Below are positions 11,121 to 63,416 of a stretch of 64,000 nt of DNA, in pieces. Under the pieces are notes generated by a model. The model saw only the letters and a program-made list of their open reading frames with translations. It made no database searches and was not told where the DNA came from. The stretch is taken from contig CM062274.1 in assembly GCA_031216635.1 (NCBI GenBank), positions 26,420,913 to 26,484,912 on the forward strand, in the 5' to 3' direction. Origin of the DNA: Dissostichus eleginoides. Its lineage: Eukaryota. Made by a program: the position numbers and the translations under genes. Position 1 is the stretch's first letter, and every line of letters starts with the position of its first letter.

Positions 11121-12717
11121 ATGAGTATTGAAATATTCAAGACGTGTACAATTATAACGTAAATATGAATGATGGGGATCAAATTAAAAACAGTAAAGTG
11201 CAGCAGAACAATTTATTAATGTTAATTCTATCAATCAGCTTCACATAAGGTTGTGATGGTTCCTACATCCACAAAACACAAGTCATCATTTGCTTTGCCT
11301 GTCGGTCGTCAGGTCACTGCAGTCAACTCTGATTATCCACACGGTCCTGATGTAGCAGATTAGCTGCTTTTTTCTAAATTAATCCCTCAATTGTTGGTTA
11401 TTTATTTATTATGCTCACGCTTATTCAATGTCATAGACAAAAACTGTAGGTCCAAGGGGCTTTTAAACAAAATATTAAAGGATGAAATCCATTAATAATG
11501 GCCATAATACATAAGCATAAACTAGGCTTAGGGGGTAGCTTTTAAATTCATCTTTAAAGATATCAACACTTTCAGCTGCTCATAGACCCTCCGGCAGGCT
11601 GTTCTAATAGCTCGAAGCACAAAAACTAAAAGCTTTTGCTTTTTGGAACAACTTGTGTGAGGGGACCTGGGGGCTTGTTTCATCAAAAATGCAGCCTACA
11701 ATTTGCAACATGAGATAATACCCTCCTATTATACTGTTCAGAACAAATTCAATATTCGGGATGCATGCATGAGCATGCAAGGAAAGTGTAGTGCTTGAAA
11801 ACATTTTCCACAATTTGCGAGTGGCAATCTTTTGCAAACTGCACACCCTGGGTTACACTTTGCAGGCATGTTAGACAAATCAGCTGGTTCAAGGCTACTG
11901 TGTGTAGTGCTTTATAAACTGGTCATATTATTTCAAAGAAGCAATATAAAACTGAAAGGCAACCCCTCTGTAAAGACTTTAAAATGCTTGCTCTCCATTT
12001 GGTCTCAAACAACACTCAGCAGGCCGCACACTTCTGAATCAATTGTTACTGATTCATGACTGAAGCTCGAGTGCTACATGCCAGACAGCTAAGATATCAC
12101 AGCTGGAATATGAATGAATGTCTTGACAATGTTCCTTCAGTAAACACATCCCGAAAACTGCTGTGCAAACTCAAAGGGAAGCGTAAAGTAATGAGAAAGT
12201 AATGACTCATATCTCCATTCAGCCTTTCCTCTGAATAAAGCGGACTCACTGTGTCACTTCTAAAAGGCTACTCGTAGACAGCTTAGATGGCGAGTTAGAA
12301 AAGGGCAGAATATCAAAGCCAACATGCGATCAGCTTTCTCTAAAGTAGTTCTAAAATTAAACGCATGGAGACACGACTCAAACTGAGGTGCTGTCTGCAG
12401 CAGCTGGAAGAGTCAAGGGGAAATAGCTAAGGTATCATTAGTAAATGAACAGTTTTGATCTTTATGAAAAGAAATTCCCGCAGGCTGCAGAGAATTATTA
12501 AGGGTTGGGAAGGTTTATCTAAGAGTAAAATTATACTTGGAATACAATGATTTCAAAGCCTCCTATCCTTGTGTCTGAGAGTGATTCAGAATATTCTTTT
12601 CTTTTATCATTGATCCTCTCATCTCTCTGCAGATTTTCAGAAGCTTTGGAGGTTTCTGGTACCTGATGACGCAACCGCTGGCAGACAGAAATGGCATCTG
12701 TGAAAATCCCCACTGGG

Positions 12718-12721
<4 letters not shown>

Positions 12722-12792
<71 letters not shown>
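12722..12792. repeat. (GT)n microsatellite
   Basis: Uninterrupted gt dinucleotide run of ~35 units. Confidence 0.95.
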
Positions 12793-12793
<1 letters not shown>

Positions 12794-15403
12794 ATTCGGA
12801 GTTGATTTCATCCTGTTCTTTGACGGTTAGCAATCACAGGGCGGAAGGGAGCTCTGATTGTGATGAACCTGCTTCCTGCTGTTCTCTCTGTCAATCCAAT
12901 CGCTGTGTTTCCTTTCCAGCGGGATGACTACGGTCCAGTTTGCTGTCCACAAATGTTCTTGGACACAAATACTGCCACTTCTTTAGTGCCTCACACTGCC
13001 AATGTTTGCCAGGCCGGTGGCGTTATATATTTTCCTGGGCCAATATCCTGTCACAAAGCCCTACAGTATTGGGATGAGTGCTGCACAGATCAACATACAT
13101 TAACTCTAGTTACAGTTTTTGTTTTTGGTGCTGCCATGTTGTGCTTTCGAGCTCTGTCAATGCAATTAGCTTAGTCAAGCAGACAAATTAACTTGGGGTA
13201 GAAAAGTAATTATGTTAGAAAAGGGCAACTGGGCTTGCTTCGGGCATCAGAGTGACTTCTGGTATTCATAAAGGAACATTAGGATCCTGTGGACGTCATT
13301 AAATCCATCCTCCACAAAACCATCTTGTGTTAAAATAATCAGTCTGACCATTTCTACATCCAATCTGTAGCCGACAGAACCCAAAGGACTCTCCTCAGCA
13401 GCTGAAATCTGTCAGCAGTGACTAATTATAGAGGGTAAGGTGTGGGGATGTCCAAATCCTGAAATAGGAAAGAAAATGTGTGAGCAATGCTTAATAATCT
13501 AGTTTAAAGATTCAAATTAACAGCAGCACTACGCAGAAATCTAACTTTCAAATGTTGAATAATGCTTGTTTCTTTCTGGATATAACTGGTTAGTTATTGA
13601 AAAAAAAGTATTCTCATTCTACTTAACACAGCACAGGAAAAACAGCTATGTTCACATGCCCCCTTGTGGATCACATCTGTCACATATTAATTTTATGGCA
13701 TAGTTTGACACCTTATTAATAAGTAAAATGTCTACCATGGATCTGTTTGGAGCCCCCTTTCTGGGACTGTTAATAAATGCATTGTTGCTCCGTTGGTTTA
13801 TTTAAAAAACCCAGTGTTTATCATCATTTAGTTCTTGTGCAACATGAAGCCTCTTATAAATGTTGAATTAATGTAGTTGTTTTAAGCTTATATAGATTGT
13901 TGGACATCAGTCTCAATTCTAAAGTGCCATCTGAGTTTTCCTTAAGTAAAAATCTCTTTATCTGCATTTGCTATTTTGGATCTTCAGTCATTCTGTGTAG
14001 CTTTTTGGCCAAATGAACCAGCCTGGGTGGAATTAACAATCAAACATAAAAACGAATTACTGTATATTGAGTCATCTCTGTGTGTGACTAGCACCAGGCT
14101 GCTCTGTATCTGCATCACTGCTTTTGCAAACTGTGTTACCATCATCTGGTTTCATATTATTTATATTTCACGTCACTGCAGGAGGTTCAGGCAGTCATAC
14201 ATCTCTGTAGTTCTGTGTTTTTAATAACTTTGTTTGGTTGGTGGTGGGTCAGTGCCTTCTGTCTTTGAGGAACCAATTTCCTCTGCCGATCTGTGAGATA
14301 AAGATTAATTTAAATTCTGATATTTGAATAGATGTTTAAACTGGGAACGTGTGTTTCAACTAATGTACCCATCGTTAAATAATTATATTTCAGCAGTGTG
14401 TGAACAATAGGCTATATAAGTAGTAGTATTCGCCAAATTAAATGTTCCCAACTTGTGTGTAAGTGGGCTTTTTAACCCCTCTGAATAACACTTTATAAGA
14501 ATTTTTGTGAACTCAAATAAATAAGGTCCAGGGAAAAAACATCAAGCTGTTAAATCCTCATTTATATACCAGAATACAAACATAAAACAGCACTCATACA
14601 CAAGTGCTTAGAGTCCACAGCTAAATATTCTGTGAAATATGTTTTAGCATGGTGAACAGGGCTGGGCAGCATAGTGAAATTAACTTTGTCATACTTGTTT
14701 TGTTTGTAGCAGAACTCTTCATCCAGAGGAGGGCAGCATTTTGTCCGTGTTAAAAATAGCTCAGCCCATGTGGATAACTGGAAATTTTAGTGTTTAACCA
14801 GGAAGTCAGCCACAGATTACCTCTGTCAAGTTACAGACACTGACCCTGACATTACTTCTGATTTTCCTTTCAAAGTAAAAGTCTTACAGAAAAGGATTGC
14901 AGCAAATTTCTCAGTGCCTAAAAGAAAGAAATTAAGACTATTGCACAAATCGTCAGAATATTCTTTTAAATCACAAAGAAGCAGATTTTTGGGACATGCT
15001 ACTTAAATGTAATGTATGCTATTTCTTTCTGTAACAAGCACTGGGACACTAGCCAAATAAAAGACAAGTGTCTTATCAGTAGGGGACATACGGGTATTAG
15101 ATGATAAAGATATTTAACTCTTTACATTCACCTTCACATGTAGTTGAATTCACAAACAACAGAAACGTTGTTTGTATTATTTGCATTTAATGCTAAACAT
15201 TATAATAGTGAGAATTAGTTTGGGTAAAAACTATGATGGTGAAGGTATATTTTATAAAGTACTGTACTTAAGTATATGTTGACATATTTGTACTTGACTT
15301 CAGTATATCTATTCTATTCTTTTATAGACATTTTATATTGCATGGTATCGATTTACTTTTTAAATGTACATGATATGACACATTGCTGTACTACTCTGAC
15401 TCT

Positions 15404-20892: not shown

Positions 20893-21035
20893 GTAAGCTC
20901 CTCTCTGTGGATCGTGCTGCTGTCAGACTACTGAGAGAAACATCAGCTGCCCCATCAGCCTTATTTGTTTGACCTTCCCGGAAAGACAGTCTAATGATGC
21001 ATCTCATTACAATTATTCTTGTGCTCCGTGTCTCG

Positions 21036-21042
21036 TGTGTGC

Positions 21043-21076
<34 letters not shown>
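21036..21076. repeat. (GT)n microsatellite abutting the parp4 exon 8 acceptor
   Basis: tgtgtgcgtctgtgtgtgtgtgtgtgtgtgtgtgtgtag|gtt. Confidence 0.9.
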
Positions 21077-21247
21077 GTTAGCAGGGTGGAGGGCTTGTTG
21101 CTCCAGGCTCAGAGGAAGCTGAAGGAGTCAGATTATAATGAGGTTGCGTCTCTTATTGATGAGGTTTACACCCTGCTGCCGCACAAAGAGCCATGCCCCT
21201 TTCCTCCCACTGCCAAGTTCATCTCTCAGAAACTGGATCTCTGTCAG
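21077..21247 (+). CDS. parp4: parp4 exon 8
   Basis: Translation VSRVEGLLLQAQRKLKESDYNEVASLIDEVYTLLPHKEPCPFPPTAKFISQKLDLCQ (human VSKAEGILLL...LIPHKG...ADLCQ). The acceptor follows a (GT)n tract directly: gtgtgtgtag|gtt. Confidence 0.88.
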
Positions 21248-24935: not shown

Positions 24936-25067
24936 GAAGATGCAGATCAAACAGGTTCTGCGTGTCAGCCGAGGAGTGGAGCTCCAGACGTTTAAGAGTG
25001 AGTTTGGGAACGTGAGGCCCCTGCTGCACTCCTCCAGCCCCAGCAACTTTGTTGGAGTCCTGTCTCG
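24936..25067 (+). CDS. parp4: parp4 exon 10 (start of PARP catalytic domain)
   Basis: Translation KMQIKQVLRVSRGVELQTFKSEFGNVRPLLHSSSPSNFVGVLSR (human ...LSKLGNVRPLLHGSPVQNIVGILCRG). The donor ctcg|gtgagc runs straight into a (CA)n tract. Confidence 0.88.
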
Positions 25068-25070
25068 GTG

Positions 25071-25144
<74 letters not shown>
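25068..25144. repeat. (CA)n microsatellite starting inside the parp4 exon 10 donor
   Basis: ctcg|gtgagcacacacacaca... about 36 units. ORFs 24852..25145 and 24919..25143 are repeat-translation artifacts. Confidence 0.95.
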
Positions 25145-25145
<1 letters not shown>

Positions 25146-25409
25146 CTCTCTCCAGTACCTTTTGTATTTGTTAATCCTTCTGCTTGCGCTCCTACTTTGA
25201 AAAACATTAATGCCATGTAATGTTGATCATCTGTTTATACACGTTTGTGTTGTTCAAAACGTCCTCTGAATCCATGAATCCTTAATAACAGTTGATGAAA
25301 CTGTTTGTTAACAAAAAATAATACTATCTTCAAGTTCATCACAATCAGAGCTTCCTTCCGCTCTGTGATTGCTAACCTTCAAAGAACAGGATGAAAATCA
25401 ACTCTGAAT

Positions 25410-25411
<2 letters not shown>

Positions 25412-25456
<45 letters not shown>
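25412..25456. repeat. (CA)n microsatellite
   Basis: tcacacacacacac...acacgcgc. Confidence 0.9.
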
Positions 25457-26008
25457 GCATCCTGAGATTTATCTGTCAATTGTTGTTGGATAATCCCAGG
25501 TTTTCTTGCAAGGACACTGATAGAGATCATTTCTGAGACGAAAAAGTACTTGTTGATTTTTTAAATCCAGACTGACTTCTGTACGGAGGGTGTACCACCA
25601 AGAAAACATGATATACTGTTCTGACTTGAAATTAAAAAAAGGTTTACTTTTCCTGGGCTCTTTGGCTCTACATTTAATTAAAGGCAGTTTTGATGGATTT
25701 AGGGATAAATGAAGCTCATAGATCATAGTCTATGCTGTGTGTAACGTGAGTGTTATAGTTCCTTTGTGCAACCAGTTCAAATTGGATTCTGATGTTGGTT
25801 CCTTTTAAAGAATAATGCGAACAACTCCAAACAAGCAGTTCATCTGAATTGAGCGCTTAGACTCGCAGTGGAGCGTAGCTTTAGTAATGTGATATATTTG
25901 ATGATATTGTAATGCAGACAGGTACAGTTTAGTGAAGGTCTTCAAATGGACAACTAAGACATTTTATTTGGATTTTTTTTACTTTAACAATGTTTAACCT
26001 CTCTTTAG

Positions 26009-39195: not shown

Positions 39196-39276
39196 GCCAC
39201 CCTGCTCGGAAATCTCAGCGGTCAGGAGCTCCAAACCATGGTTTCAACCAGTGAGCTGCAGAAGACCAGAGGCACA
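39196..39276 (+). CDS. parp4: parp4 exon 26
   Basis: Translation ATLLGNLSGQELQTMVSTSELQKTRGT (human ATLCALIQEKEFRTMVSTTELQKTTGT). The donor ggcaca|gtaaga runs straight into (CA)n. Confidence 0.9.
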
Positions 39277-39281
39277 GTAAG

Positions 39282-39332
<51 letters not shown>
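39277..39332. repeat. (CA)n microsatellite starting at the parp4 exon 26 donor
   Basis: ggcaca|gtaagaacacacacacaca... Confidence 0.95.
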
Positions 39333-39334
<2 letters not shown>

Positions 39335-39616
39335 CACTCTCCAGTCCCTTTTGTATTTGTTAATCCTTCTGCTTGCACTTCTACTTTGAAAAACATTAAT
39401 GCCATGTAACGTTGATCGTCTGTTTATACACGTTTTGTGTTGTTCAAAACGTCCTCTGAATCCATGAATCCTGAATAACAGTTGATGAAACTGTTTGTTA
39501 ACAAAAAATTATACCATCTTACATAATTGCACTCATCTTAACTAGTTGACCCTGCAGACACTGATGCAGGTTGTTGTTGATTATAGATTATGATGTGTAT
39601 TAATGTGTGTGTTCAG

Positions 39617-39695
39617 TTTCTTCACAAGCTCACTGCGAGGGCCCTCATCAGGGATTACGAAGACGGAAGCCTGGATACCAATGAAGCCGAACATG

Positions 39696-39697
<2 letters not shown>
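39617..39697 (+). CDS. parp4: parp4 exon 27
   Basis: Translation FLHKLTARALIRDYEDGSLDTNEAEHE (human MIHKLAARALIRDYEDGILHENETSHE). The donor catgag|gtgtgt is the first repeat unit of a ~190 bp (GT)n tract. Confidence 0.9.
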
Positions 39698-39775
<78 letters not shown>

Positions 39776-39809
39776 TGTGTGTGTGTGTGTGGTGGTGTGT
39801 GTGTGTGTG

Positions 39810-39887
<78 letters not shown>
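39698..39887. repeat. Long compound (GT)n microsatellite starting at the parp4 exon 27 donor
   Basis: catgag|gtgtgtgtgt... about 190 bp with a few ggt/gtt interruptions. ORFs 39590-39981 on both strands are artifacts. Confidence 0.95.
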
Positions 39888-39890
<3 letters not shown>

Positions 39891-39962
39891 CAAAAGAAAC
39901 CTGCATCGCTTTAGACGTCTAGTCCCAGCTCCAGGTGTTAAACTGGACCTTTTTTGTTTCAG

Positions 39963-40159: not shown

Positions 40160-40318
40160 GACTCAGAACAACCAGAGGAAGGCTTTACAGACATCCCAAA
40201 GCTACTCGCCGAGGAAGATGTGGACTTCCTCCCCTACATGGGCTGGATTTCTCCTCAGGACAGTGAAGAGGAGGACTCTGAGGATTATTTGGAAAGGAGG
40301 AGGTCCAAATGCTTAATG
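40160..40318 (+). CDS. parp4: parp4 exon 29
   Basis: Translation DSEQPEEGFTDIPKLLAEEDVDFLPYMGWISPQDSEEEDSEDYLERRRSKCLM (human DENESPFPDIPKVSELIAKEDVDFLPYMSWQ). Donor aatg|gtaaagtcac. Confidence 0.88.
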
Positions 40319-40420
40319 GTAAAGTCACATTGTGCAATCAGGGGACAAGAAAAAAGCATCTTTACTTGTTATGATTTACTAATTGACAATATCCTTTCTG
40401 CCTTCGTCTCTCCGTTGTAG

Positions 40421-40480
40421 GAGTTTGGGTTCCAAGCAACCGCTGAGGATGACTCTGAAGAGATCTCTGATTGCTTAATG
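40421..40480 (+). CDS. parp4: parp4 exon 30 (duplicated mini-exon)
   Basis: Translation EFGFQATAEDDSEEISDCLM, with acceptor ccgttgtag| and donor aatg|gtaaagtcac. It belongs to a tandem exon+intron unit duplication, so its inclusion in mature mRNA is uncertain. Confidence 0.65.
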
Positions 40481-40582
40481 GTAAAGTCACATTGTTTAAT
40501 CGGGGGACAAGAAAAAGGCATCTTTACTTGTTATGATTTACTAATAGACAATATCCTTTCTGCCTTCGTCTCTCCGTTGTAG

Positions 40583-40873
40583 GAGTTTGGGTTCGAAGTG
40601 ACCGCTGAGGATGACTCTGGGGATGCTAAGGATGAGTCTGAGGATGAGTCTGAGGATGCTAAGGATGAGTCTGAGGATGAGTCTGAGGATGAGTCTAAGG
40701 ACTTGTCTAAGGATGAGTCTGAGGATGAGTTTGGGGATGCTAAGGATGAGTTTAAGGATGCTAAGGATGAGTCTGAGGATGCTAAGGATGAGTCTAAGGA
40801 TGCTAAGGATGAGTCTGAGGATGAGTCTGAGCCTCTGGTTGGATTAAAAAGTGATCCAATAATCCAAATGAAG
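40583..40873 (+). CDS. parp4: parp4 exon 31 (acidic octapeptide-repeat exon)
   Basis: Translation EFGFEVTAEDDSGDAKDESEDESEDAKDESEDESEDESKDLSKDESEDEFGDAKDEFKDAKDESEDAKDESKDAKDESEDESEPLVGLKSDPIIQMK. It carries 24-bp (DESEDAKD-type) repeats. The frame is confirmed by ORF 40598..40948. Confidence 0.8.
40617..40840 (+). repeat. parp4: Coding 24-bp tandem repeat (acidic DESEDAKD-like octapeptides) inside parp4 exon 31
   Basis: gatgagtctgaggatgctaag-type units repeated ~9 times with variants (gac ttg tct aag, gat gag ttt ggg/aag). Confidence 0.85.
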
Positions 40874-41453
40874 GTAATGTCACATTGCATTTACTATAAT
40901 AATGAGGAAACAAAAGCGTTTGCTTGTTGTTATTTGAAGATGCCCTAAAATCCCAAACTTCCCTCCAGAGGGAATTTCTCTGAAAAATAAAGCATTTTTT
41001 GTACATTTAAGCATGTAAACAGACAGGAGAGGCACAAAATACAAATATGAACCTGAAAATGAGGATAATATGTCCTCTTTAATAAATAACACTTTAACAA
41101 GTTGCATTTGTCTCCCTTTGTGCTTTGTATGATAGGGGACTTATTCCCGTAAAATGTTCAGCAACAAATTGCTGCTTCACATTTGCTATTTTAAAGTGAC
41201 AATAAATGCATCGCTTTCAGATAGAGCTGTTATTTGTAATGCATTGACTGTGTTAAAACTAAACAAAAACATACCAATTGGCAGGTTAACAAATCCTTAA
41301 TGAGTGTCCTCGTGTGGCGTCACTCACATGTTATTAGAGAGGCAGGACAATGCAATACTGCAACATTAATTTTTGTTTGAAAAAAATTCAATTGTCCAGT
41401 TATCATTTGTAAGAAAAAGGTTTTGACTTTTTTATTGTTTCTGTGTTTTTTAG

Positions 41454-43351
41454 CATGGGTCCTCTCTGAGAAGAAGAGGGGACGTGGACAGATCGGCACC
41501 TTCAGCAGCGTGTGAACCCCCCATGCGTGATTTTGAAGTAGCACTACATTCTTTTGAAATGCATCAATTGGATGAAGAATTGCATTTGGATTCAGACTGC
41601 TCATTTCATCCTCCATCATCTCCTCCTTTCCACATGAAGGAACTCACCCAAAAACGTTCTTTCCGTGCGCCTCTCCCTCTGATCAGTGGTCTTCCAAGCC
41701 GCTCATTTCATCCTCATGGACTAATGGCAGCAGAAGTTCCCAGACGCCACGTCATCATGTTCGGTGCAACGCAAGCTGCAACTGACTCAGATGTGTCGAT
41801 GAAGATGAGCGATGATGGGCCTGAACCTCCTGTGACAGGGAAAGCATTTTCATTCTCAAGACAGAAAAAAGCACTCTCCTATTCTGCTCATTCACTTCAA
41901 TGCCAGTCAACCTCTCAAGACCCTCCAGCTCCCCCTCCTCCTACTCTTGGTCCAGCTCCTCCGCTAGCTGAAATTTTACTTGGCACTAATGCCATGTCGG
42001 ATCAGGTCAGTGAGTCACTGGTGGGACGCGCTTTCGGGAACAGAGCGCTATCAGCTTCCTATCAAACAGGAACCTCCTCTGGTCTCTGGGATGCAGGATT
42101 GTTTGCACCCCAGGAACGCAGCTCGAGTTTTGGATCTCCTGTGAAAGGTCAGTCAGGAGGGTTTTCCAGTAGTGCAGCATCTTTATTCTCCTCAGATCAA
42201 AGACAAAAAGGAAGCTTATTTTCTGATGAACTTGAAAGGGCAGGCTTTGGTCTCATGGGTTGTGCGCTTGAAGAAGAACCCGTTAGACAAGATCAGCCAA
42301 TGAAAGATGCCCCTCCTGTTTCACTTGATGAAGCATCAGATGTCGATGTAGAGCGACGTATGCACAAATCCACAGGTAGACCATTAGCAATGCTTGAAGA
42401 AGATGATCCCTCATGTGGAAGTTCTTGGGGAGGACTGGTCCACATGAAGGAACTCGCCCAAAAATCTCCTCTTCGTGTGCCACTCCCTCCGGGTGGTCGT
42501 CAAATTCCCTCATTTCATCCTCGAGAACAAATGGCAGCAGAAGTTCCCCAACGCCACAGCATCATGAACGGTGCAACGCGAGCTGCAACTGATTCAGATG
42601 TGATGATGATGATGAACGACCGTGCGCCTGAACCTCCTGTCACAGGGAAAGCATTTTCATACAGAAATGCACTGTCCTATTCTGCACATTCACTTCAACG
42701 CCAGTCCACCTCTCGAGACCCTCCAGCTCCCCCTCCTCCTACTCTTGGTTCAGCTCCTCCGCTAGCTGAAAGTTTACTTGGCACTAATGCCATGCCGGAT
42801 CAGGTCAGTGAGCAAATGGAATCACAAGCTCTCAGGATCAGAGCGCTATCACCTTCCTATCAAACAGGAATCTCCTCTGGTCTCTGGTCTGGACTCCAAA
42901 GCAGCTTGAGTTGTCCCACCTTTCCAGGTGCTATGAATATCCATGTCGGTGCGTCTGATTTGGATATGACAACTGAATGTGCGACTGAATCTCCTGTGAA
43001 AGGTCAGCCAGGAGGGTTTTCCAGGAGTGCATCATCTTTATTCTCCACAGCTCAGCTCTTATTTTCTGATGAACAAGAAATGGCAGGCTTTGGTCTCAGG
43101 GGTTGTGCGCTTGAAGGAAAACCCATTAGACAAGATCAGCCAATGAAAGATGCCCCTCCTGTTCCACTTGATGAAGCATCAGGTGTCCATGTAGAGCGAC
43201 GTAGGCACAAATCCAGAGGTAGAGCATTAGCAATGCCTGAAGAAGATGATCCCTCATGTGGAAGTTCTTGGGGAGGACTGCTCCCGCGTAAACGTGGGAT
43301 TGGTTTTTTAAAGGCCTCCAGGATGCGTCAATCAGCTGATCAACCATTTGA
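41454..43351 (+). CDS. parp4: parp4 exon 32 (1.9 kb exon with two ~270-aa tandem repeats; S/P-rich)
   Basis: Open frame 41454-43352 (ORF 41484..43355). Acceptor gtgttttttag|cat is in phase with exon 31. Two ~810 bp tandem copies (FHMKELTQK...SCGSSWGGL / VHMKELAQK...SCGSSWGGL). The proposed donor tttga|gtgagt at 43352 overlaps an in-frame TGA. Confidence 0.78.
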
Positions 43352-43682
43352 GTGAGTCCCCAAACGTTTTTTTGTTTTAATAGATAAGCTCCTACTAAGA
43401 AAACTGTGATAACTATTGAATAATAGTTGTTGACAAAAAATGCTCTACTTATTTATAATTTTTTTAAAGGCTTTGGTTGACAAAATTAACATAGATGAAT
43501 TCATCTGCATGTTAACTGAAAAGTATTGTTGTAAATCCTCTGATTATGTACATGTATGCATGTGGGAAAAAAAGTCAGTATATGTGTGTATTTATGTTTA
43601 CATTCTTTGATTTATGTGTGTTTTTTAATACACAACATCCAGTGTTCTCTAAGAGTGTCCTGTTGTGATCATGTCGTTTCAG

Positions 43683-47561: not shown

Positions 47562-50057
47562 ATGTATTTGTAGCCCTTTTATTGTCAGTGTGTTTACATG
47601 TTCTTAAATAGGTAGATAAAATTGGCTTACTGCAGACCGGATTTATTCAACTTAAACTGCTTCGGGCGGATGTCTACATATCGCCTTTTCTGCACATCAG
47701 CATCTTTTTTCAAATGTATTCCAATAAGGCGATAGCTTATACTGTTTTACACCGTGGGAAGAGTTGCACCCCTCGTCTTTCTTCTGACCGTTCCACCGTT
47801 TTGGTCAAGTTGAAAATATTTAAACTATTAAAGACGCTGTTGACGTCACTGTAGGAAATGACTGTCTCACTGTCAGATAGTAACCATCATAACAACGACC
47901 AAAGAGCCTGTTTGTTGGAGCAGATCTGCCGGTGAGTGTGTCGCCTATATCGTACCATACACATATCATCCTCCTCACTCTAAAGCTGAAAGCTGTGACG
48001 CTCAATCACACAAAATGTGAGAACAAGCATCCTCCTGTTTGTTCTCATAGACACAATGTCAAACAAATACATAGCAAAAATCGATAATAAAATCCAAGGG
48101 GTGAGGCTAGTCTGTCACACAACAATGGTGATACAGTGTCAAGATCTTGCTGTCATAGAAACAACAAAACAACCCTTGGAGCGTTATGTGGACACGCCCT
48201 TATTCGGGGGAAAGAGGATTTAAAGGCTAGATTACATTTCATGGCCATGTACACTGATAGTTATCATCTTGTTCACTTGCATGCAAGTCCACAACAATGC
48301 CTTCAGACAGAGATAGCATCATTGTGACCAGTGATCAAAGGGAAGGTCACGTATGGGTAGCAGTGTATTTGCATGTTTGTAATCATCCCCTCCCAAATAG
48401 TCAAAGTCTACTTCCTCTAAATATTTTACTGGTAAATGTAGTCACAGCTGTCTTCCCACAGTTGAACACACAGTCACATGTTATTATAAAATAAGGAAGC
48501 GGTGCCTTTGTGCCCAAAAAGGGTCAGTTTCTTGGAAACATCTTTGACTGACCTGCTGAATGTGTGTGTTGCTTCTCTGAGTAACCTTGTACATGTGAAT
48601 CTTTATTTGTCTTGTGTTTCATTTATAACTGCTGAAGCACCTTTTGATTATTTTAGTGTAGGATATAGGATATTCTTTCACAGTATATGCAGTTTTATAT
48701 CATGGTAGCGGTATAAATCAGGGTACAGTATAGTATTGTTCTGTAAATTCAATAAGAAGTGGATTAAAACAACCTGTTTTTGGATTATTTTCCTCTTTTA
48801 TTTGGAACTACAATATTAACAAAATCAACCGACTCACGAGAGACAAAGCCAAATACTCAAAACCTTTAAAATTCTGAATGTGAAACACGTTTTAAGGTTA
48901 AACGGTGCAAATAACTTTGACTTTGAAATACATATCAGTCTGACTTCAGTCAATGCAATATGAAGCACCATAAACATCCCACAAGTTTTAATTTCAATAT
49001 ATACCAAAAGAATATATCATTTCATATCATGTTTCATTCAAAAAAGTAAAGTAAAACTCCCTTTTTTTGAAGTACATTACAGTACTCGAGTAAATGTGTA
49101 CATTTTATATAGCTAGATCAGGAAATGGCAACTTTTTTATACAAGATAACACTTATTATAAAAATATGGTGGGTGTATTACATGTTCTCTGACAAGATAA
49201 AGCTCTTGCACACAACAACTTGCTGTTATCAGATAAAAAGCAGCTTTACCACTTCCCATTTTTTCTTAAAGGTCCCCTATCATGCAAAATGCACCTTTGA
49301 TGTCTTTTATACACACATATGTGTCCCCGGTGTGTAAGGAGACTCACAAAGTGTCAGAAAATACAACCCTTTCTCTTTTCCTCCGTACCCAAATCTCTAA
49401 AAATGGGGGTACAACGGAGCTGATCCAGATGTGCTGCGGTCATGACGGACATTACTGAAATGTGGGCTGGCTTTACACCCACGGCCCTATCAGAAACGTC
49501 GCTATCAGAAACAATGCCCGACTATTTTGGAAGTAATATGATCAATGTTTACATTAGCAAGCATCGCTAACACTCAGAGCTAACACTACTGGAGAGAGTA
49601 TGTGTAAAGAAGCAGGATATAAAAAGGTACTCCCCACTATATGTGTTTGTAATCATGAACAAAAATAAAATCTTTCAGTTCCCCAGTTGTCTTCATTTGT
49701 TTTCTTGTGTTTATCAGCATTGATTTAAGATCCCTGCTTTCACAACGATGTCAGCTAATACTCTTTTAAACTTGTCAAAGAGAGCTCTACGGGATCAGTA
49801 CATCTTGAATGTTATTAAACTTCATGGGTTGTTAAGACCATATGTCTCTATTTAACACAATGGACTCTATTATAACACTTATTTCAATGTGCTTCGAGAA
49901 TACTATGTTTTAATCATGGTAATGTCAATAAAGCTGATTTAAATTTGTCTTGACTCTCAGCGTTAGAAAAAAATAGCATTTCCTTATATATGTATATTGT
50001 TTTTTAGATAGATAATTATCTGGTACAGCAATAGGAAAATACTCTTAACACTTGAGA

Positions 50058-50155
50058 GTTGTGACTTCCTCAAAAAGAGACATTTTTTAGAAATTGAAAC
50101 CAACCAACACACTTTCCTCAGTCACATACTTCAATACTTGACATTCCCATGAGCG
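50058..50155 (+). promoter_or_regulatory. Proximal promoter of lectin gene 1 (PU.1/ETS box + ISRE-like GAAATTGAAACC)
   Basis: gtgacttcctcaaaaagag is the reverse complement of a PU-box (CTTTTTGAGGAAGT). GAAATTGAAACC at ~50090 matches the ISRE/IRF consensus GAAANNGAAAC. A second GGAA lies at 50113. The block is conserved in the paralog upstream region 61477-61600. Confidence 0.5.
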
Positions 50156-50225
50156 ATGGAGGAAATCTATCTCAACCTTGACGATGTCAAACCCCTAAGC
50201 TCAAGATCATCAACAAAACAAGAAG
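50156..50225 (+). CDS. C-type lectin gene 1, exon 1 (cytoplasmic tail)
   Basis: Translation MEEIYLNLDDVKPLSSRSSTKQE, ATG at 50156, donor gaag|gtaagg. The paralogous exon sits at 61601. Confidence 0.8.
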
Positions 50226-50297
50226 GTAAGGGTCAGTCAGACAGAGTGAGCTGTGGATTTTGGATTTATTATACTCCCTGGTTTTCTCTGTGTTCAG

Positions 50298-50387
50298 GTC
50301 CCAGCAGATTTCCCCCAGCGTCTGTTCTCGGTCTGGGGCTGCTGGTTGTTTTCCTGCTGGCTGGACTCATCGGCCTCGCTGTCCACC
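50298..50387 (+). CDS. C-type lectin gene 1, exon 2 (transmembrane segment)
   Basis: Translation GPSRFPPASVLGLGLLVVFLLAGLIGLAVH is a hydrophobic signal-anchor typical of type II C-type lectin receptors. Donor cacc|gtgagt. Confidence 0.8.
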
Positions 50388-50605
50388 GTGAGTCTTATTT
50401 TTAATATATATATTATATTAGTTTCATAAGTCATTTTGAACGTGTGATTTTAAGGAGCAATATTCTGCTCTGAAAGATGCACATTTGACCAAAACATCTA
50501 TTGTTTTTCTATTTTTCTCCTAGGGCGAAAGTAGATAACATTCACTTTGGTTTGTGTCAGTCGGATTGCATCAGGTAATTTAAGAAACATCTTTTTTCAT
50601 TTCAG

Positions 50606-50793
50606 ACCATAACTCAGTAGGTGGCGCAGCTGCAGATCTCTCCGCTGTCAAAGCAAACCTGACGTTTGACGTGAGCGTCTCCAGGCCAGAGATCAGCTGC
50701 TCTACTCAGTGACTGAAGAGAGAGACAGACTGAATGCCAACCTCACTGAAAAGACCAGAGAGGTTGACAGGCTTCAGAGTTTGTCCAAACAGA
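50606..50793 (+). CDS. C-type lectin gene 1, neck exon (frame-inconsistent; possible internal acceptor at 50710)
   Basis: Homologous to the lectin-2 neck exon, with a single ...LQARDQL...NANLTEKTREVDRLQSLSKQ unit. Using the canonical acceptor cattcag|acc gives an in-frame TGA at 50710. Only the internal acceptor ctactcag|tg restores the frame shared with the donor caga|gtgagt. Confidence 0.5.
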
Positions 50794-51439
50794 GTGAGTG
50801 CTTTTCTATGACGGTTTTGCACAGGGCTGGGCAATATGGATTATATCAATTGTCATGATATTTTTGAGCAAATACCTCAATATTGCATCGATATTCTAAG
50901 GTTGGCAATTGCTCCTTTGAAATAATAACATGAGCGTACCAGAGAATGTCATTGGAAATGTTATAATGTGATTGAACAAAGATATAATGCAAACTTAAAA
51001 AGGTCAAAGACAAAAGATGTTACACTCTACAATGATGTCTTCATACTAGCGTGTTGTCTTTTCATAAAAATATGAAAAGATAACATGCCAACTTACTATA
51101 TGATGAAATCCAAAGTTCAACAAACTTATCTATTATTGTTGGACAATATCAATATATTGCCAAACCCTTCTGCATAAAAGTGTAGAACACCTTATTTTAC
51201 TCTCAGCACCTTTTCTTCACTCTCTGTTAATTTAATCATACATTTTTTTTATGTGTACAGCCCTTTAAAAAAAATCTTAGTAACATCATTTTAAAAGCTA
51301 AAAAGCTTCAGTCCCATCACTTCACATAATTATAAGATTGTGAATAACTAAATATCTCTTTATTAGGATGTTTTAAAAATGTTGACACCTTGTATTCTGC
51401 ACATTTTTAACTGCTCTCTTTTTATAGGTTCTGTCCCTG

Positions 51440-51840
51440 AAACTGCGCTGGTTCAGCCATTTCTAAAAAAGCCCTCACTTGATTCCCCATTCTTAAACAT
51501 TTTAGACATATTTCCAAGCTCCCATTTTTAGATAAAGTTTTAGAAAAAACTGTAGCAGAATAATTGTTAGCTTTTATCAATGACAACAATATTTTAGAGA
51601 AATTCTAATCTGGCTTTAGAAAAATTCATAGTACTGAAACGGCTCTTTTTGAAGTTTTTAATGACTTGTGTGATTTTATTTGTAGGCTTATTATATTTAT
51701 TTTCTATGTGTTTTTATGTTTACATGCTGTTGTTTAATTATCTAGCTCACCGTGTATTTTTATGTTAGAGCACTTTGTAACTGTGTTTTGAAAGGTGCTA
51801 TATAAATAAAGTGTATTATTATTATTATTATTATTTATAT
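51440..51840 (+). mobile_element. Second copy of the non-LTR 3' fragment family (in lectin-1 intron)
   Basis: Ends ...ttagagcactttgtaactgtgttttgaaaggtgctatataaataaagtgtattattattattattattt (tail + (TTA)n). Confidence 0.45.
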
Positions 51841-52222
51841 GGTGATCTACAAGATATATTTCCCAGGAATGTTTTTTATATCATCTTCCTTTTTTGATGT
51901 CATGTCAGTCAAAATTACCGCCTTTATTGCAGTATTTTTTTACTTGATTCATTAAGCAATTGGACTTATAGTACCGAGTAAGGAATCATAACAGACTCTT
52001 AAAATGATGCAGAGTGAGAGAAGTTTTATCCTTTGTCCCATGCAATGATACCGGTCTATCAGAATAGATCTTGGCTACCATCAACAATGCTTATTGAATA
52101 TGTATTTTTCAAAATCACACAAGGGACAAGAATGCTCTAAGAGTTGAATATTTCAGCAAGGAGTCAACTAAATCTTACAACTCAAAAGAAGGTAATAAGG
52201 CATGTCTTGTGTTTTTTTGCAG

Positions 52223-52365
52223 AGAAAACGTGTCCTGCAGGATGGAGGATGGTCGGTTGTGTCTGTTATCTCCTCTCTACGGGGAAAGCTTCATGGGAAC
52301 AAAGCAGACAAAACTGCAGAGCCAGAGGAGCAGATCTGGTGATCGTAGACAGTAATGAAGAACAG
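52223..52365 (+). CDS. C-type lectin gene 1, CTLD exon A
   Basis: Translation KKTCPAGWRMVGCVCYLLSTGKASWEQSRQNCRARGADLVIVDSNEEQ (CTLD CPxGW...CY...W..S...C...GA.L..I.S.EEQ). Frame matches ORF 52144..52437. Confidence 0.85.
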
Positions 52366-53939
52366 GTAATGTGTGCTGCTTTAACAATTTATTGTTTTAC
52401 TTATCTGAATCATATACAGAATATAAAGGTTCTTTAATTGAATAGGTGCCAATGTATATTGAATAATTAAAATTAACAAAACTTTGATTTTATATTTTTT
52501 ATATGGTGGTTTTATCTATCATTTAGCTTATTTATTACTTATCTACTTCACAGCTGTGTGTTATCGTTACTGGCTTTTATGCACAATGAGTTATTTTACT
52601 TTTGATACTTCAAGTTTATTTTTATGCTAATACTTTAGTGTTTAAGTACAAATGTTCCCAAAGATGACCACACCCCTTTGTACTACACTGCGTTCAATTG
52701 TGTTTTTATTGCATGCTTTTATGTGTATCTTTCATACGTATCATTTAGATTAGATTACAAAAATGAAATGTATGATTTATGTGTAACGACTGAATGAACA
52801 CCAGTAGAGGACTCAATAGTGTTGTGTTCAAAATTCCAGGAAAGACAGACAACTTCTAAGTTTAACTATTTATTATAAGAGAGCAAAATATATATATTCA
52901 CTTGGCCAAGGACTCCGTCACGTCATAGAAATCACAGGCAGCAAAGCTGTAATCTGTAACCTTGGTTTAGACTTTGGCTCTCTCTTGTTGGTACACAGAC
53001 TCAGATAAGGTCTCTTGGCAACACGACCTTCCAATCAGCATTCGGCCGGCCGGCGAAGTCCCTCCCTATACTATCCGCTATCCTAGTAATTTGTTTTCAC
53101 TAAAGCTGCTTTGCAGGCATATAGTGGAATCCTTCATTTACACTGCTTCCTAGCTATGCGTGGGTGCGAAGCTCCCATACAACTCGAGGCCGGAGCGATG
53201 TCCTGTGTATGAATAACTCTTTGTATGCTTCCAGTGTCTGCACCTGACCTTGCTACTCTGTATTGCAGGCTAAAACTTTCTTATGTGACTTTTCCCTTCG
53301 TTTCCTATACAATCCATCAAACCTTGGGATTGGTGATTTTGTCTATTTATTCCAAAGTCACATCAACATAAAATGAGCACAATAAGCTTATAATGTAATA
53401 ATAAGAATCAGTCTTTCTAATGTTATACAAAAATAGACTCCACAATAGCACGACTCAGGGACAGAGGCTTAGGTTGCAAAAAGGTCTTTATAGCAGAGGC
53501 TCGGCACACGGGAGATCAGTCAGTAAGGCAACCAAAACAGGTGAGGATTAGGCAGGAACAGGGTCAGGACACGAAGCTGGGTCAGGTACACGTGGAAACA
53601 AGATACTAGTAGGAATAAACACTGCTGGAATGCTAGGAATAACAAAGACGAACTGGCACTGAGGGGAATGTGGACGCAGACTAAATAGACAGGGGGAGGG
53701 ATGATAATGGGGCACAGGTGAGGCTAATTAGGGATGGGAAGCAGGTGGAGTTCAATCAAGGGCAAGAAAGCTGAAACTGAAATGAGAGAAACAAAATAAA
53801 AACAGGAATACTGTAATAACAAAAACATCAACATGCTGGCTAGGGCCTTACATTATGTCTGAGTTAGTTAGAAGGGAATAGTTATCCGAATGTCGATGTT
53901 GATCCCTGTAAACTTCATTTATAATATGTTTAAGACTAA

Positions 53940-57680: not shown

Positions 57681-58850
57681 ATGGATAACCTCGCATCACT
57701 AACCGCCAACATAGCACAGATGGGACATCAACTCAACCTGGTTTCAACTCATCTTACTCCGCCTGCTCCTGAGGATCCAGCTCCCCCACAAGAGTTAGCA
57801 CCGGTTCCAGCCCAGCCCGCTCTCCCTTCACGTGAGCCAAATATTCCCACTCCAGAGCGGTACGCAGGTGCCTTAGGGACATGTAAGTCTTTCTTAATGC
57901 AGTGTTCTCTTGTCTTTGAGCAGCAGCCGTCTACTTATGCTAACGACAGAGCTAAGATTTGTTATATGATAGGTTTACTTACGGGTAGCGCCCTAGCCTG
58001 GGCATCAGCTGTATGGGAGAGTCAGTCCAACCTTTGTAATTCTTATCCAGAGTTTGCAGAGGAAATGAAGAAAGCATTCCACCACCCCGTCAGCGGTAGG
58101 GACGCTACTAAACGCCTCCTCTCACTGCGACAGGGCTCCCGTAGTGTAGCCGAATACTCAGTGGAATTTAGGACCTTAGCTGCAGAGGCGGGTGGAATGA
58201 CACAGCGCTTCAAGGGGTTTTTCCAACAGGGCTAACTGATTCTGTTAAGGATGAGTTAGCAGTGAGGGACGAATCAGCTAACTTGGATGAGTTGGTCTCC
58301 CTAGCCATAAGACTGGATAACCGCCTTAGGGAGCGACGTAGGGAAAGAGCCAGCCGATCTCCTGGGTCACTCCCCTCTCGCCCTGTCTCGTCTCCTCTCG
58401 CAAGATTCAGGTCGGAAACTTTCCCAAGTCCCAGTGCCCCATCTGAATTATTTTCTCCTCTCCTGTCTTCAGAGGAACCGATGCAGCTAGGCAGAGCCCG
58501 ACTCACTCCCCAAGAACGTCTCCGGAGAATAAGAGAAGGACTTTGTGTCTACTGTGCTCACTCCGGTTCGTGGACAAATGCCCCCAGCGCCCAAAAGAGG
58601 GTGCTCGCCAGTAAAGGTGGGGATACTGGTGAGCAAGGCTGTTTCTTCCTCAACCCCCCAGACCTGCAAGCCACTTGGAGCCACACTGTTGTTAAACCAA
58701 CAGTCTCTCACTCTGCCTGCCCTAGTGGACTCTGGGGCTGATGAGAGCTTTTTGGATGCCCAACTGTGGCTCTGCAGCAGGTTTACTCGACATTGTCGCC
58801 GTTTCTCAATGTCGAGTAAACCTGCTGCAGAGCCACTATTTCAAGTATAG
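57681..58850 (+). mobile_element. Ty3/gypsy-type LTR retrotransposon fragment (gag + start of protease, frameshifted)
   Basis: ORF 57681..58235 is a retrotransposon Gag-like sequence (…[18 protein letters not shown]…). ORF 58262..58741 contains a zinc-knuckle-like [11 protein letters not shown] 58545..58850 contains the aspartic protease motif [10 protein letters not shown]. The three run in different frames and truncate before RT, so the element is decayed. Confidence 0.7.
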
Positions 58851-60758: not shown

Positions 60759-61064
60759 CTACTTCCTCTCTGCAACAACAGTCGGACGGAGGTTGTCGTC
60801 GGGTTCCGGGATACGCTTGCAGTGGCTGGCGTGGATCCAAGGAATCTTTCCGGCAACCTTCACGGCGGTCTTGGTGATGAGGAGAATGTGGAACGGACCC
60901 TGGAACCGTTGCTGCTTCCAGTGTTTCCTCCTGAAGTCTTTGATCACTACCCAGTCACCGGGCTTGTGGTGTTGTGGCGCATCAGCTGGCGTCGGCAGTA
61001 CGGCTTTCACCTGAGAGTGGATAGCTGAGAGGGAGACTGAAAGACTTATACAGTAGTTCAACAA
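60759..61064 (-). mobile_element. Retroelement integrase C-terminal fragment
   Basis: Minus-strand ORF ...PGDWVVIKDFRRKHWKQQRFQGPFHILLITKTAVKVAGKIPWIHASHCKRI is the GDWV/SH3-like integrase C-terminal domain typical of gypsy/retroviral integrases. The motif gttggtagcttggca(c/t)gctac is duplicated at 60033-60060 and 60737-60765. Confidence 0.6.
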
Positions 61065-61474
61065 AAGGTAACTTAAAGTGTCTCAACTTTCAGAAACTAA
61101 CATTACATTAACAGAATAATATTCTTTAAATCTGTGCCAGTTTGTCTTGTGCCTTGTGCCATCAAGAGAGCCAGCTTTTCACACCAAAAAATATTTGTAG
61201 CTGCTTTCACAATGATGACATGCTATTCTCTTTTTATTAACCAGTAAAATAGATCTTTACAGGATCAGAATATTTTGAATATTATTAATCTTTGTGGCTT
61301 TGTAAGATTATATGTCTCTATTTAACACAATGGACATGATTATCACACATGTTTCAGTCTTAAATCTGTATTGTCAATGTGCTTTGGCAATAGTATGTTT
61401 TTAATATGGTCATATCAATAAAGTTAATATTTCCTGATATTCTTTTTTTTTATATATATATATATATATAAAAT

Positions 61475-61600
61475 GATGTGTCACTTCCTCAAAAAGATAA
61501 AGCATTTAGAAATTCAAACCAGCAACCACACTTTTCCCGGTCACATACTTCAGGATACTTGCTGCAGAGCTGACCTTCTAGGAAAGAGTTGGCATGAGCA
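61475..61600 (+). promoter_or_regulatory. Proximal promoter of lectin gene 2 (conserved PU.1/ETS box, degenerate ISRE)
   Basis: tgtcacttcctcaaaaaga and gaaattcaaacc lie in the same order and spacing as upstream of gene 1. The ISRE second half-site is G>C substituted. A (TA)n at 61452-61472 sits immediately upstream. Confidence 0.45.
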
Positions 61601-61670
61601 ATGGAGGAAATCTATGCCAATGTTGACGATGTCATATCCCTAAGCTCAAGATCATCAACAATACAAGAAG
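61601..61670 (+). CDS. C-type lectin gene 2, exon 1 (cytoplasmic tail)
   Basis: Translation MEEIYANVDDVISLSSRSSTIQE is the paralog of 50156-50225 and sits in the same promoter context. Confidence 0.8.
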
Positions 61671-61743
61671 GTAAGAGTGTCAGTCAGAGTGCACTGTGGA
61701 TTTTGGATTTATTGTATTACTCCCTGGTCTTCTCTGTGTTCAG

Positions 61744-61833
61744 GTCCCAGGAGATTTCCCCCAGCGTCTGTTCTCGGTCTGGGGCTGCTGGGTGTTTTCC
61801 TGCTGGCTGGACTCATCGGCCTCGCTGTCCACT
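61744..61833 (+). CDS. C-type lectin gene 2, exon 2 (transmembrane)
   Basis: Translation GPRRFPPASVLGLGLLGVFLLAGLIGLAVH, donor cact|gtgagt. Confidence 0.8.
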
Positions 61834-62040
61834 GTGAGTCTTTCTTTTAATACGTTTAATAATGTCATTTTGAACGTGTGATTTTCAAGAGTAATATTCT
61901 GCTCTGAAAGATGCACATTTGACCAAAACATCTATCGTCTTTCTACTTTTCTCCAAGGGCCAAATTAGGAAAACATTGACCATGGTTTGTGTCAGTATGA
62001 TTGCATCAGGTAATTTAAGAAACATCTATTTTCATTCCAG

Positions 62041-62328
62041 ACCATAACTCAGTAGGTGTTGCAGCTGAGCATCTCCAGGCCAGAGATCAGCTGATCAACC
62101 AGCTGAAGGCCAACCTCACTGAGCGTCTCCAGGCCAGAGATCAGCTGATCAACCACCTGAATGTAAACCTGACTGAGCGTCTCCAGGCCAGAGATCAGCT
62201 GATCAACCAGCTCAATGTAAACCTCACTGAGCGTCTCCAGGCCAGAGATCAGCTGATCAACCAGCTGAAGGCCAACCTCACCGAAAAGACCAGAGAGGTG
62301 GACAGGCTTCAGAGTTTGATGGACAAGG
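62041..62328 (+). CDS. C-type lectin gene 2, neck exon with 4 x 18-aa repeats
   Basis: Translation YHNSVGVAAEH + (LQARDQLINQLKANLTER)x4 variants + ...KTREVDRLQSLMDK. Phase-consistent with flanking exons. Confidence 0.8.
62083..62298 (+). repeat. Coding 54-bp tandem repeat x4 (lectin-2 neck)
   Basis: ctccaggccagagatcagctgatcaacc(a/c)(g/c)ctgaa(g/t)g(c/t)(c/a)aacct(c/g)ac(t/c)gag(cgt/aag) x4. Each unit encodes LQARDQLINQL(K/N)(A/V)NLTE(R/K). Confidence 0.9.
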
Positions 62329-63055
62329 GTGAGTGCTTCATGTGGGGTTTTGCATCGGGCTCGGTATGTATATGTAAGATATCAATTATCATAATATGTT
62401 TTACAAAATACCTCGATATTGATAGTCTAAGGCTGACTATTGATCCTTTCATAAAATAGTTACACAATGACACTTTTTCATTAATGATAATCATGAATTA
62501 GTTTTTAATGACTTAGTTGTGAATGATTTCATTTATAGTTTGTTTTATTTTTCTTCAGCCACCATATTTATATTTCTCTGTAAACTATGCTTATGGCCAG
62601 TTTCCTTGTCTAAATACTTTAATATAAGCAATAGGAAGAAGAACTTAGAGGTAGTTTGTTCCAGATATTTGCAGCATAATAATAAAAAAGGATAACAAGG
62701 TTTCAAACCAATTTAGAACTGTTGCCGAAAGTCAGACCCAGTTTTCCAGTCGGTCTAGAAACTAACACCGAGATGTTGCCACTGTCTGTGTTTAAGTGGA
62801 TGTCATTGAAGACTTTAACAAGATCAGTCTCAGTGCTGTGGTGCCTGACTAGATCACATCGAAACAGTTATTTAAATCCCAAAAAAGAGAAGTAGTTGCT
62901 CTGCAATGAAATATGTGATCTCTTTTGATCCCTCTAAAAATGCTTGATAAATATTTTTTTTCATTATTATTACAAAAGTGACATATAATGCACTCAAGAG
63001 TTCCATATTCCAGCAGTTAAAGCAGTAAATCAACAAGATCTTAACACTTTTACAG

Positions 63056-63198
63056 AGAAAACGTGTCCTGCAGGATGGAGGAAGTTTGGTTGTTCCTGTT
63101 ATCTCCTCTCTACTGAGAAAGCTTCTTGGGAACAAAGCAGAGACAACTGCAGAGCCAGAGGAGCAGATCTGGTGATCGTAGACAGTAAGGAAGAACAG
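63056..63198 (+). CDS. C-type lectin gene 2, CTLD exon A
   Basis: Translation EKTCPAGWRKFGCSCYLLSTEKASWEQSRDNCRARGADLVIVDSKEEQ. Confidence 0.85.
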
Positions 63199-63416
63199 GT
63201 AATGTGTGCTGCTCTAACACTTGTGATTGTATAACTCCCTGCTTTTATCAATCAATAATGTTTTTATTGTACATATACTAGCAAATGTGTCTATCAGCTA
63301 TAATGATTACGTCACAACAATGGTGTTAATTACATATTTCTGAGCTAATAAAAAGGGAAAAGTTATCTGAATGGTGATGTCCATCCAAGTAAACTGCATT
63401 TTTAATATGTGAACAG

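Follow-up and report, generated by a model that had tools for sequence, protein, structure and literature searches.

A 184-bp piece of intron 26 of parp4 appears to have been copied into intron 10 of the same gene in Dissostichus eleginoides by ectopic repair of a break in a (CA)n repeat, with two templates serving the repair, an explanation to which we assign a probability of roughly 0.6. The copying probably occurred because both introns begin with the same CA repeat. The copied unit, here termed X, is present in two paralogous copies (copy A in intron 10, copy B in intron 26), and in intron 10 it abuts a second unit, Y, exactly and head to head, the two units having opposite strand polarity. 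X copy A is most likely a DNA-repair scar and not a mobile element homing to splice sites. All positions refer to the window, i.e., the whole stretch of 64,000 nucleotides of contig CM062274.1 that was analysed, and the features are listed in Table 1.

Two copies of X in parp4

The exons around the two copies of X encode PARP catalytic, VIT and vWA domains and belong to parp4; a D. mawsoni protein matches them with 92-100% identity per exon, and the D. mawsoni contig JAAKFY010000018.1 (locus L001, corresponding to window ~15910-39189) is collinear at ~97% DNA identity. We retain the exon numbers 10 and 26 used in an earlier, sequence-only reading of this DNA. With a slash marking the splice boundary, exon 10 (backed by tblastn) ends with its donor as ...CTGTCTCG/GTGAG(CA)n, i.e., ...TCTCG/GTGAG, and exon 26 as ...GGCACA/GTAAGAA(CA)n. 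As judged from its sequence, the stretch 12633-12722 is a putative upstream parp4 exon, probably of the 5'-UTR; its donor (GATACT/GTGTGT) coincides with the first unit of (GT)35, and the D. mawsoni gene model likewise reaches upstream of the first coding exon. The orthologous exon at L001 10100-10135 in D. mawsoni is one T short (aacttgttgg vs aactttgttgg), which results in a frameshift, has the donor GTGAAC instead of GTGAGC, and is partly omitted from the annotated protein P0003; the discrepancy is either an assembly indel or a true difference.

BLASTN within the window aligned 25148-25330 with 39337-39520 (E 5e-65); the alignment spans 184 nt at 95.1% identity, with 8 mismatches and 4 gap columns, and no third copy was found in the 64 kb at E<0.01. 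This bears out the sequence-only reading, which had noticed twin units of ~95% identity at 25145-25320 and 39335-39515; the 175-bp unit that it described exists, but its extent was underestimated, as the homology reaches ~10 nt further, to ...ATCTT. That each unit is preceded by a (CA)n at a splice donor was confirmed by TRF and by the sequence itself, the repeats beginning 5 and 7 nt past the respective exon ends, whereas the two repeats, which had been called identical, are each perfect and share their motif but not their length, (CA)36 vs (CA)28. From (CA)n into X the homology is continuous without a detectable junction, and in either copy it breaks off sharply at ...ATCTT; X and Y are alike in this respect, the two copies of each unit sharing one non-repeat end nucleotide. 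An X-like match at 14481-14523 (72%, E 0.02) was discarded as an AT-rich chance similarity.

Table 1. Exons, repeats and duplicated units discussed in the text, with positions in the window.
Feature	Positions	Strand	Evidence
Putative upstream parp4 exon	12633..12722	+	...ctctctgcag/ATTTTCAG ... GATACT/GTGTGT
(GT)35 beside Y copy C, beginning at the donor-like site after the putative exon 12633-12722	12723..12792	+	TRF; sequence
Y copy C, the proposed template for Y, in opposite orientation to copy A	12793..12871	-	92-94% identical to the copy A sequences of Y in both the window and D. mawsoni
parp4 exon 10, PARP catalytic domain, ...LLHSSSPSNFVGVLSR	24936..25067	+	tblastn with fish PARP4 fragments, 97% to D. 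mawsoni P0003
Donor GTGAG followed by (CA)36 (25073-25144), recipient microsatellite and proposed homology anchor	25068..25144	+	TRF; also in D. mawsoni
X copy A, judged by alignment to derive from the 5' portion of intron 26	25145..25330	+	95.1% identical to X copy B across 184 nt
Y copy A, 81 nt long, adjoining X where both homologies end	25331..25411	+	92% to 12871-12794, minus strand; in D. mawsoni
(CA)21 on the outer side of Y copy A	25412..25454	+	TRF
Native intron-10 sequence (GCGCATCCTGAGAT...), orthologous to outgroup	25455..25625	+	Aligned locally with intron 10 of L003 at a score of 46 (shuffles, 12.7+-1.8)
parp4 exon 26	39196..39276	+	tblastn; outgroup contigs 82-90% identical in DNA
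Donor GTAAGAA followed by (CA)28 (39283-39337), native donor-proximal repeat of intron 26	39277..39337	+	TRF
X copy B, source copy as judged by alignment, native intron 26 with a lineage-specific ~110-nt middle	39337..39520	+	End blocks align to outgroup intron 26
Rest of intron 26, including (TG)5 before the acceptor (39603-39616)	39521..39616	+	Aligns clearly to L007 intron 26

Ancestry of the two copies and of the CA repeats

For intron 26, three outgroup lineages were available as Logan contigs from other fishes that extend from exon 26 through the intron into exon 27: L002/SRR31175793, L004/SRR31175776 and L007-9, with intron lengths of 137, 95 and 208 nt, respectively. None of these introns contains a long (CA)n or the ~110-nt middle of X, but both end blocks of X are present, in the same order, in all three lineages; in X copy B, the 5' block at 39341-39361 and the 3' block at 39474-39502 align to intron 26 of L002, L004 and L007. 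The outgroup 5' block (CTGCTTTATATGTTT / CAGTATCTGCTGTACATGTT) matches that of X, the window reading CCAGTCCCTTTTGTATTTGTT, L007 ACAGTATCTGCTGTACATGTT and L004 TCCCTGCTTTATATG. The 3' block reads AATATCAG(CT/TC)GATGAATCTCTTTGTT(A/G)AC in the outgroups vs AATAACAGTTGATGAAACTGTTTGTTAAC in X, with ungapped matches of 25/29 in L004 (AATATCAGCTGATGAATCTCTTTGTTAAC) and 24/29 in L002 (AATATCAGTCGATGAATCTCTTTGTTGAC); as a null for this block, 395 pieces of 140 nt were drawn at random from the actual sequence of the window, the best 29-mer match among them being 21/29, and a local score of at least 21 was obtained with 0.03% of 3000 real chunks (empirical p ~3e-4). When X was searched by BLASTN against all fetched DNA, it matched L004 with E 4e-4. 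Downstream of X, the 3' half of intron 26 aligns plainly with L007, and intron 26 is therefore orthologous overall. Because outgroup intron 26 carries sequence orthologous to both ends of X, the alignments show the intron-26 copy to be native and ancestral at its locus, with a lineage-specific middle, and identify X copy A in intron 10 as the derived copy. At two sites inside the conserved blocks at which A and B differ, it is A that holds the outgroup state, which fits the expectation for two descendants of one ancestral intron-26 sequence.

The orthologous site of D. mawsoni contains the same (CA)n-X-Y-(CA)n arrangement, and between the two species X copy A differs, in an alignment of 184 columns, by 2 mismatches and 2 gap columns (183/2/2 in another alignment), fewer than the 8 and 4 that separate copies A and B. 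Since X copy A is common to both Dissostichus species, the comparison shows that the copying into intron 10 predates their split and is hence old. The sole outgroup for intron 10 (L003) is a distant one, with 74% amino-acid identity in the exon, and between its CA tract and the conserved block there are ~175 nt that have no clear counterpart in the window. A native origin of X or Y in intron 10 found no support in this distant outgroup, the forward alignment of X-Y as a whole yielding no significant similarity (empirical p ~0.08). The reversed (uncomplemented) L003 intron 10 matched window 25326-25345, at the X/Y junction, at 20/21, a score above that of the forward alignment which can reflect chance only; mononucleotide-shuffle p-values are therefore too optimistic for AT-rich introns, and nulls drawn from real sequence were used instead.

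CA-rich tracts follow both donors in the outgroups as well: past the exon-26 donor we found GTAAGAACACATGCGTTCACACTCAACA in L004, GTAAGAACACGCTATACAA(CA)7 in L006 and GTAAGAACAAACACACTCACACGC in L007, and past the exon-10 donor GTGAGAACCCACACACACATACA in L003. These tracts show, at the level of sequence comparison, that the CA repeats at the two donors are older than the X duplication and independent of each other; the TG run before the intron-26 acceptor is kept in L002, L004 and L005. Fish introns have prominent AC-repeat peaks just 3' of their 5' splice sites, an enrichment specific to fish, and GT-repeat peaks just 5' of their 3' splice sites (Lin et al. 2016, PMC4691745). In the window, 4 or 5 of the 7 CA/GT microsatellites abut splice sites, 3 or 4 of them at donors (the splice-site repeats examined were 12723-12792, 21035-21074, 25073-25144, 39283-39337 and 39698-39887). 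Because donor-proximal AC repeats are a documented feature of fish, the position of X after donors needs no targeting: each of the two introns independently has such a repeat, the copied tract starts inside it, and the copy therefore automatically ends up beside a donor. The attractive idea of a composite element that homes to splice donors is thereby removed, its position following from a fish-wide feature.

The parp4 repeats resemble those of the teleost (AC)m-(GT)n structured introns, whose splicing depends on a bridging duplex and is independent of U2AF2 (PMC4691745), in that an AC repeat lies just 3' of both donors and that GT repeats precede acceptors in the window as well, i.e., at 21035-21074, where (GT)20 directly precedes the acceptor of an exon starting at 21077, and in a short form at 39603-39613. 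Unlike in structured introns, however, a GT repeat is absent from the 3' end of intron 10, and intron 26 has only (TG)5; the long partner of the intron-26 (CA)28 lies instead beyond exon 27, as the (GT)97 of the following intron, an arrangement reported as rare in zebrafish, where few AC...GT pairs span an exon (Lin et al., PMC4691745). Exon 27 (39617-39697, 81 nt, in frame) lies between this (CA)28 and the (GT)97 that starts at its own donor (window 39284-39887). In an RNA fold of 39270-39900 (MFE -217.6 kcal/mol, z -4.5), (CA)28 and (GT)97 pair into a duplex of ~54 bp that is predicted to loop out X together with exon 27, and in-frame skipping of exon 27 would be the consequence predicted by this model.

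Mobile-element and templated-repair explanations

One of two explanations offered in the sequence-only reading, a family of repeats that seeks out or generates GT(A/G)AG-CA contexts, found no support, given the orthology of the X ends with intron 26 in three outgroup lineages, the CA-rich tracts already present past both donors in the outgroups, the fish-wide occurrence of AC repeats (PMC4691745), and the absence of mobile-element hallmarks from X. X has no open reading frame (stops occur in all six frames), a tRNA scan detected no tRNA-like head, and there are neither terminal inverted repeats nor a target-site duplication around it; no Rfam family reached its gathering score, the sole matches being sub-threshold ones to SCARNA7 (~22 bits vs a gathering score of 65) that lie over dinucleotide-repeat regions. 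An orthologous outgroup site empty of X was not found either, as intron 26 of L002, L004 and L007 holds both end blocks. X and Y each occur in two copies, with no further copy or fragment in the ~117 kb of fish DNA examined. Patterns of 22 and 27 nt from X and Y had 0 matches in metagenome, prokaryote-genome and viral collections, which contain essentially no fish DNA, and the single stop-free translation of X (30 aa) had 0 matches among 1.84 billion protein representatives, a search of low power in which the parp4 copies themselves are also unrepresented. From its alignment with outgroup introns, X is most likely no mobile element but the native 5' part of intron 26 including its own (CA)n.

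Another explanation holds that X and Y belong to dispersed repeat families which carry a (CA)n end or insert into (CA)n, e.g., the 3' portions of non-LTR retrotransposons bearing a simple-repeat tail, or LINEs/SINEs that target microsatellites, the two parp4 copies being independent insertions. It would account for the fact that both X copies and both Y copies adjoin a CA/GT repeat on a fixed side and that (CA)n flanks copy A on both sides, as after insertion into a microsatellite, and families of microsatellite flanks made by RTE retrotransposons are known in Lepidoptera (PMC2887409). We nevertheless regard it as unlikely: copy B is orthologous at both ends to the intron-26 sequence of the three outgroup lineages, the donor CA tracts at both sites are older than X, the shared end nucleotide of the two copies of each unit is unexpected of independently 5'-truncated retrocopies, and the structural features and additional copies of such a family are missing from X and from the 117 kb, as is, in a weak test, the X-derived peptide from the predicted proteins. 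In microsatellite-associated flank families, described from Lepidoptera and others and derived from RTE, a near-identical flank occurs on one side of different loci (PMC2887409), and one-sided sharing is also seen in X and Y. The lepidopteran families, however, have many dispersed copies and represent retrotransposon 3' ends with remnants of reverse-transcriptase coding sequence, whereas here two copies are known, no coding remnant is present and one copy is native intron sequence with orthology to the outgroups; as far as the evidence goes, the X duplication and these families are alike in outcome, not in origin.

Non-LTR retrotransposons that target microsatellites include Waldo/Mino of insects (ACAY/AC), Kibi/Koshi of fish (TC/TTC) and Dong (TAA repeats). 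Such elements insert between two stretches of the same simple repeat, which is also the situation of copy A, but X-Y has no reverse-transcriptase/endonuclease open reading frame and no 3' tail, and it differs from them in being a chimera of two separately occurring sequences, one of which is native to another intron. The gag, integrase and LINE fragments of the window, when used as queries, had their best matches on short, purely internal Gypsy contigs, and no D. mawsoni proteins were among the results.

Y had escaped the sequence-only reading; it sits directly after X copy A and is followed by (CA)21. The layouts are (CA)36-X/Y-(CA)21 for copy A, (CA)28-X-unique for copy B and, in Y orientation, unique-Y-(CA)35 for copy C, whose surrounding 2 kb is otherwise unique. 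In copy A the homologies of X and Y end at the same base pair (25330/25331); past this point there is no homology to either source, and no microhomology is visible at the junction. From Y into (CA)n the homology is again continuous, and both Y copies adjoin a CA/GT repeat on the matching side. We infer from this geometry that copy C was the source of Y. Intragenic gene conversion, the other explanation offered in the sequence-only reading, largely holds once modified: copying within parp4 is supported, as a one-way, non-allelic and (CA)n-anchored transfer from intron 26 to intron 10, but it was not a conversion between pre-existing paralogues, and a second piece, Y, probably came along from another repeat-tagged locus.

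In the templated-repair model, a double-strand break would have occurred in, or at the edge of, the intron-10 (CA)n before the divergence of D. eleginoides and D. mawsoni, when intron 10 would have read donor-(CA)n-GCGCATCCTGAG. After resection, the left (CA)n 3' tail would have paired with the (TG)n strand of intron 26 and been extended by 184 nt, giving (CA)n-X, and the right (TG)n 3' tail would have paired with the (AC)n strand at 12.7 kb and been extended by 81 nt, giving (TG)n-Y' and, on the top strand, Y-(CA)n. Joining of the extended ends without homology would then have produced the sharp X/Y junction of (CA)36-X/Y-(CA)21; a one-ended invasion plus a template switch could have led to the same product. 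Such invasion and synthesis, with X and Y arriving in one event and copy C as a template, would suit a choice of templates by proximity, the three loci lying within 27 kb of one gene.

A tract made by templated repair has homology at one edge from which synthesis can start, whereas its other edge is an abrupt junction, and germline templated insertions have been recorded as evolutionary scars (review PMC7407515). The parp4 structure is comparable to ectopic templated double-strand break repair (synthesis-dependent strand annealing, end joining) in its one-way, short copy from a nearby paralogous anchor, in having one edge seamless within a repeat and the other abrupt, and in a polarity that fits 3'-end extension. 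It departs from the usual case in that the anchor is a dinucleotide microsatellite instead of unique sequence and that each end of a single break was apparently served by a donor locus of its own; at 184 and 81 nt, the tracts are also longer than polymerase-theta insertions typically are.

The same repeat-anchored copying might alternatively have taken place twice. Y would then be native to intron 10, with (CA)n-Y-(CA)m as the ancestral arrangement; one copying would have brought X to the (CA)n/Y edge, and another, independent one would have carried Y-(CA)m from intron 10 to the 12.7-kb repeat. Since breaks naturally fall at the edge of a microsatellite, a boundary common to both events would not have to be coincidental, and the divergences (~5% between X copies A and B, ~7% between Y copies A and C) cannot tell one event from two; two occurrences with the same boundary would be required, however, a CA tract is missing from the inner side of Y copy C, and intron 10 of the distant outgroup lacks significant similarity to Y, so that we consider this sequence of events improbable. 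Far less probable is an RNA-mediated route, by partial intron transposition through reverse splicing or by repair templated by parp4 pre-mRNA. What suggests it is that all three tracts are found where introns of a single transcript begin: a parp4 5' splice site directly precedes X copy B, and probably Y copy C as well, and the recipient site likewise lies at one, but these positions are explained by donor-proximal repeats without RNA, and no lariat or branch-point signature is visible. We rejected an RNA-templated or reverse-splicing origin on strand polarity: X is sense and Y antisense to the transcript, and with the pre-mRNA as a single template one of them cannot be primed. As for a mis-join at a microsatellite during assembly, long dinucleotide repeats are classic sites of mis-assembly, but (CA)n-X-Y-(CA)n recurs in the independent assembly of D. 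mawsoni with substitutions of its own; two independent assemblies thus show the structure, and an artefact is excluded for practical purposes.

Implications and other duplications in the window

If the repeats acted as anchors in the way proposed for templated repair, (CA)36-X/Y-(CA)21 would be a germline record of one break repaired from two ectopic templates within parp4. The locus is a clean and datable natural example of copying between non-homologous introns through microsatellite homology, in which junctions and orientation can be read base by base; the event is of an ordinary kind with an unusually legible structure, and a single case changes little. More speculatively, and in our view rather doubtfully, the AC/GT repeats at fish splice sites might serve in general as dispersed homology anchors, with breaks being repaired from nearby repeat-tagged introns and intron sequence being shuffled as a result. 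Should such a process be general, 'microsatellite flank families' and the growth of teleost introns would have a source independent of transposons, and a pattern that is common genome-wide would explain the shared flanks among some fish microsatellite markers.

Several other duplications were observed in the window. The 3' coding region (40310-43355) is internally repetitive, with a 162-nt tandem duplication at 40310-40619, an acidic 12/21-nt coding repeat at 40604-40831, and a tandem duplication of ~800 bp (41686-42441 vs 42493-43284, 85-93%) inside an open frame of 623 codons. Interspersed repeats are present as well, with inverted copy pairs of 91-98% identity at 30048-30559/37745-38258, 27270-27448/33519-33697 and 44125-44514/55854-56247, two of these pairs lying within parp4 introns. 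A degraded Ty3/Gypsy gag (Pfam Retrotrans_gag) and a retroviral-type integrase C-terminus are also present (57681-58741 and 60759-61064). A C-type-lectin-like exon region is doubled in direct orientation ~11.4 kb apart (49764-52389 vs 61234-63222, 78-93%), which, to judge from the alignment, resembles the tandem duplication of a gene located downstream of parp4.
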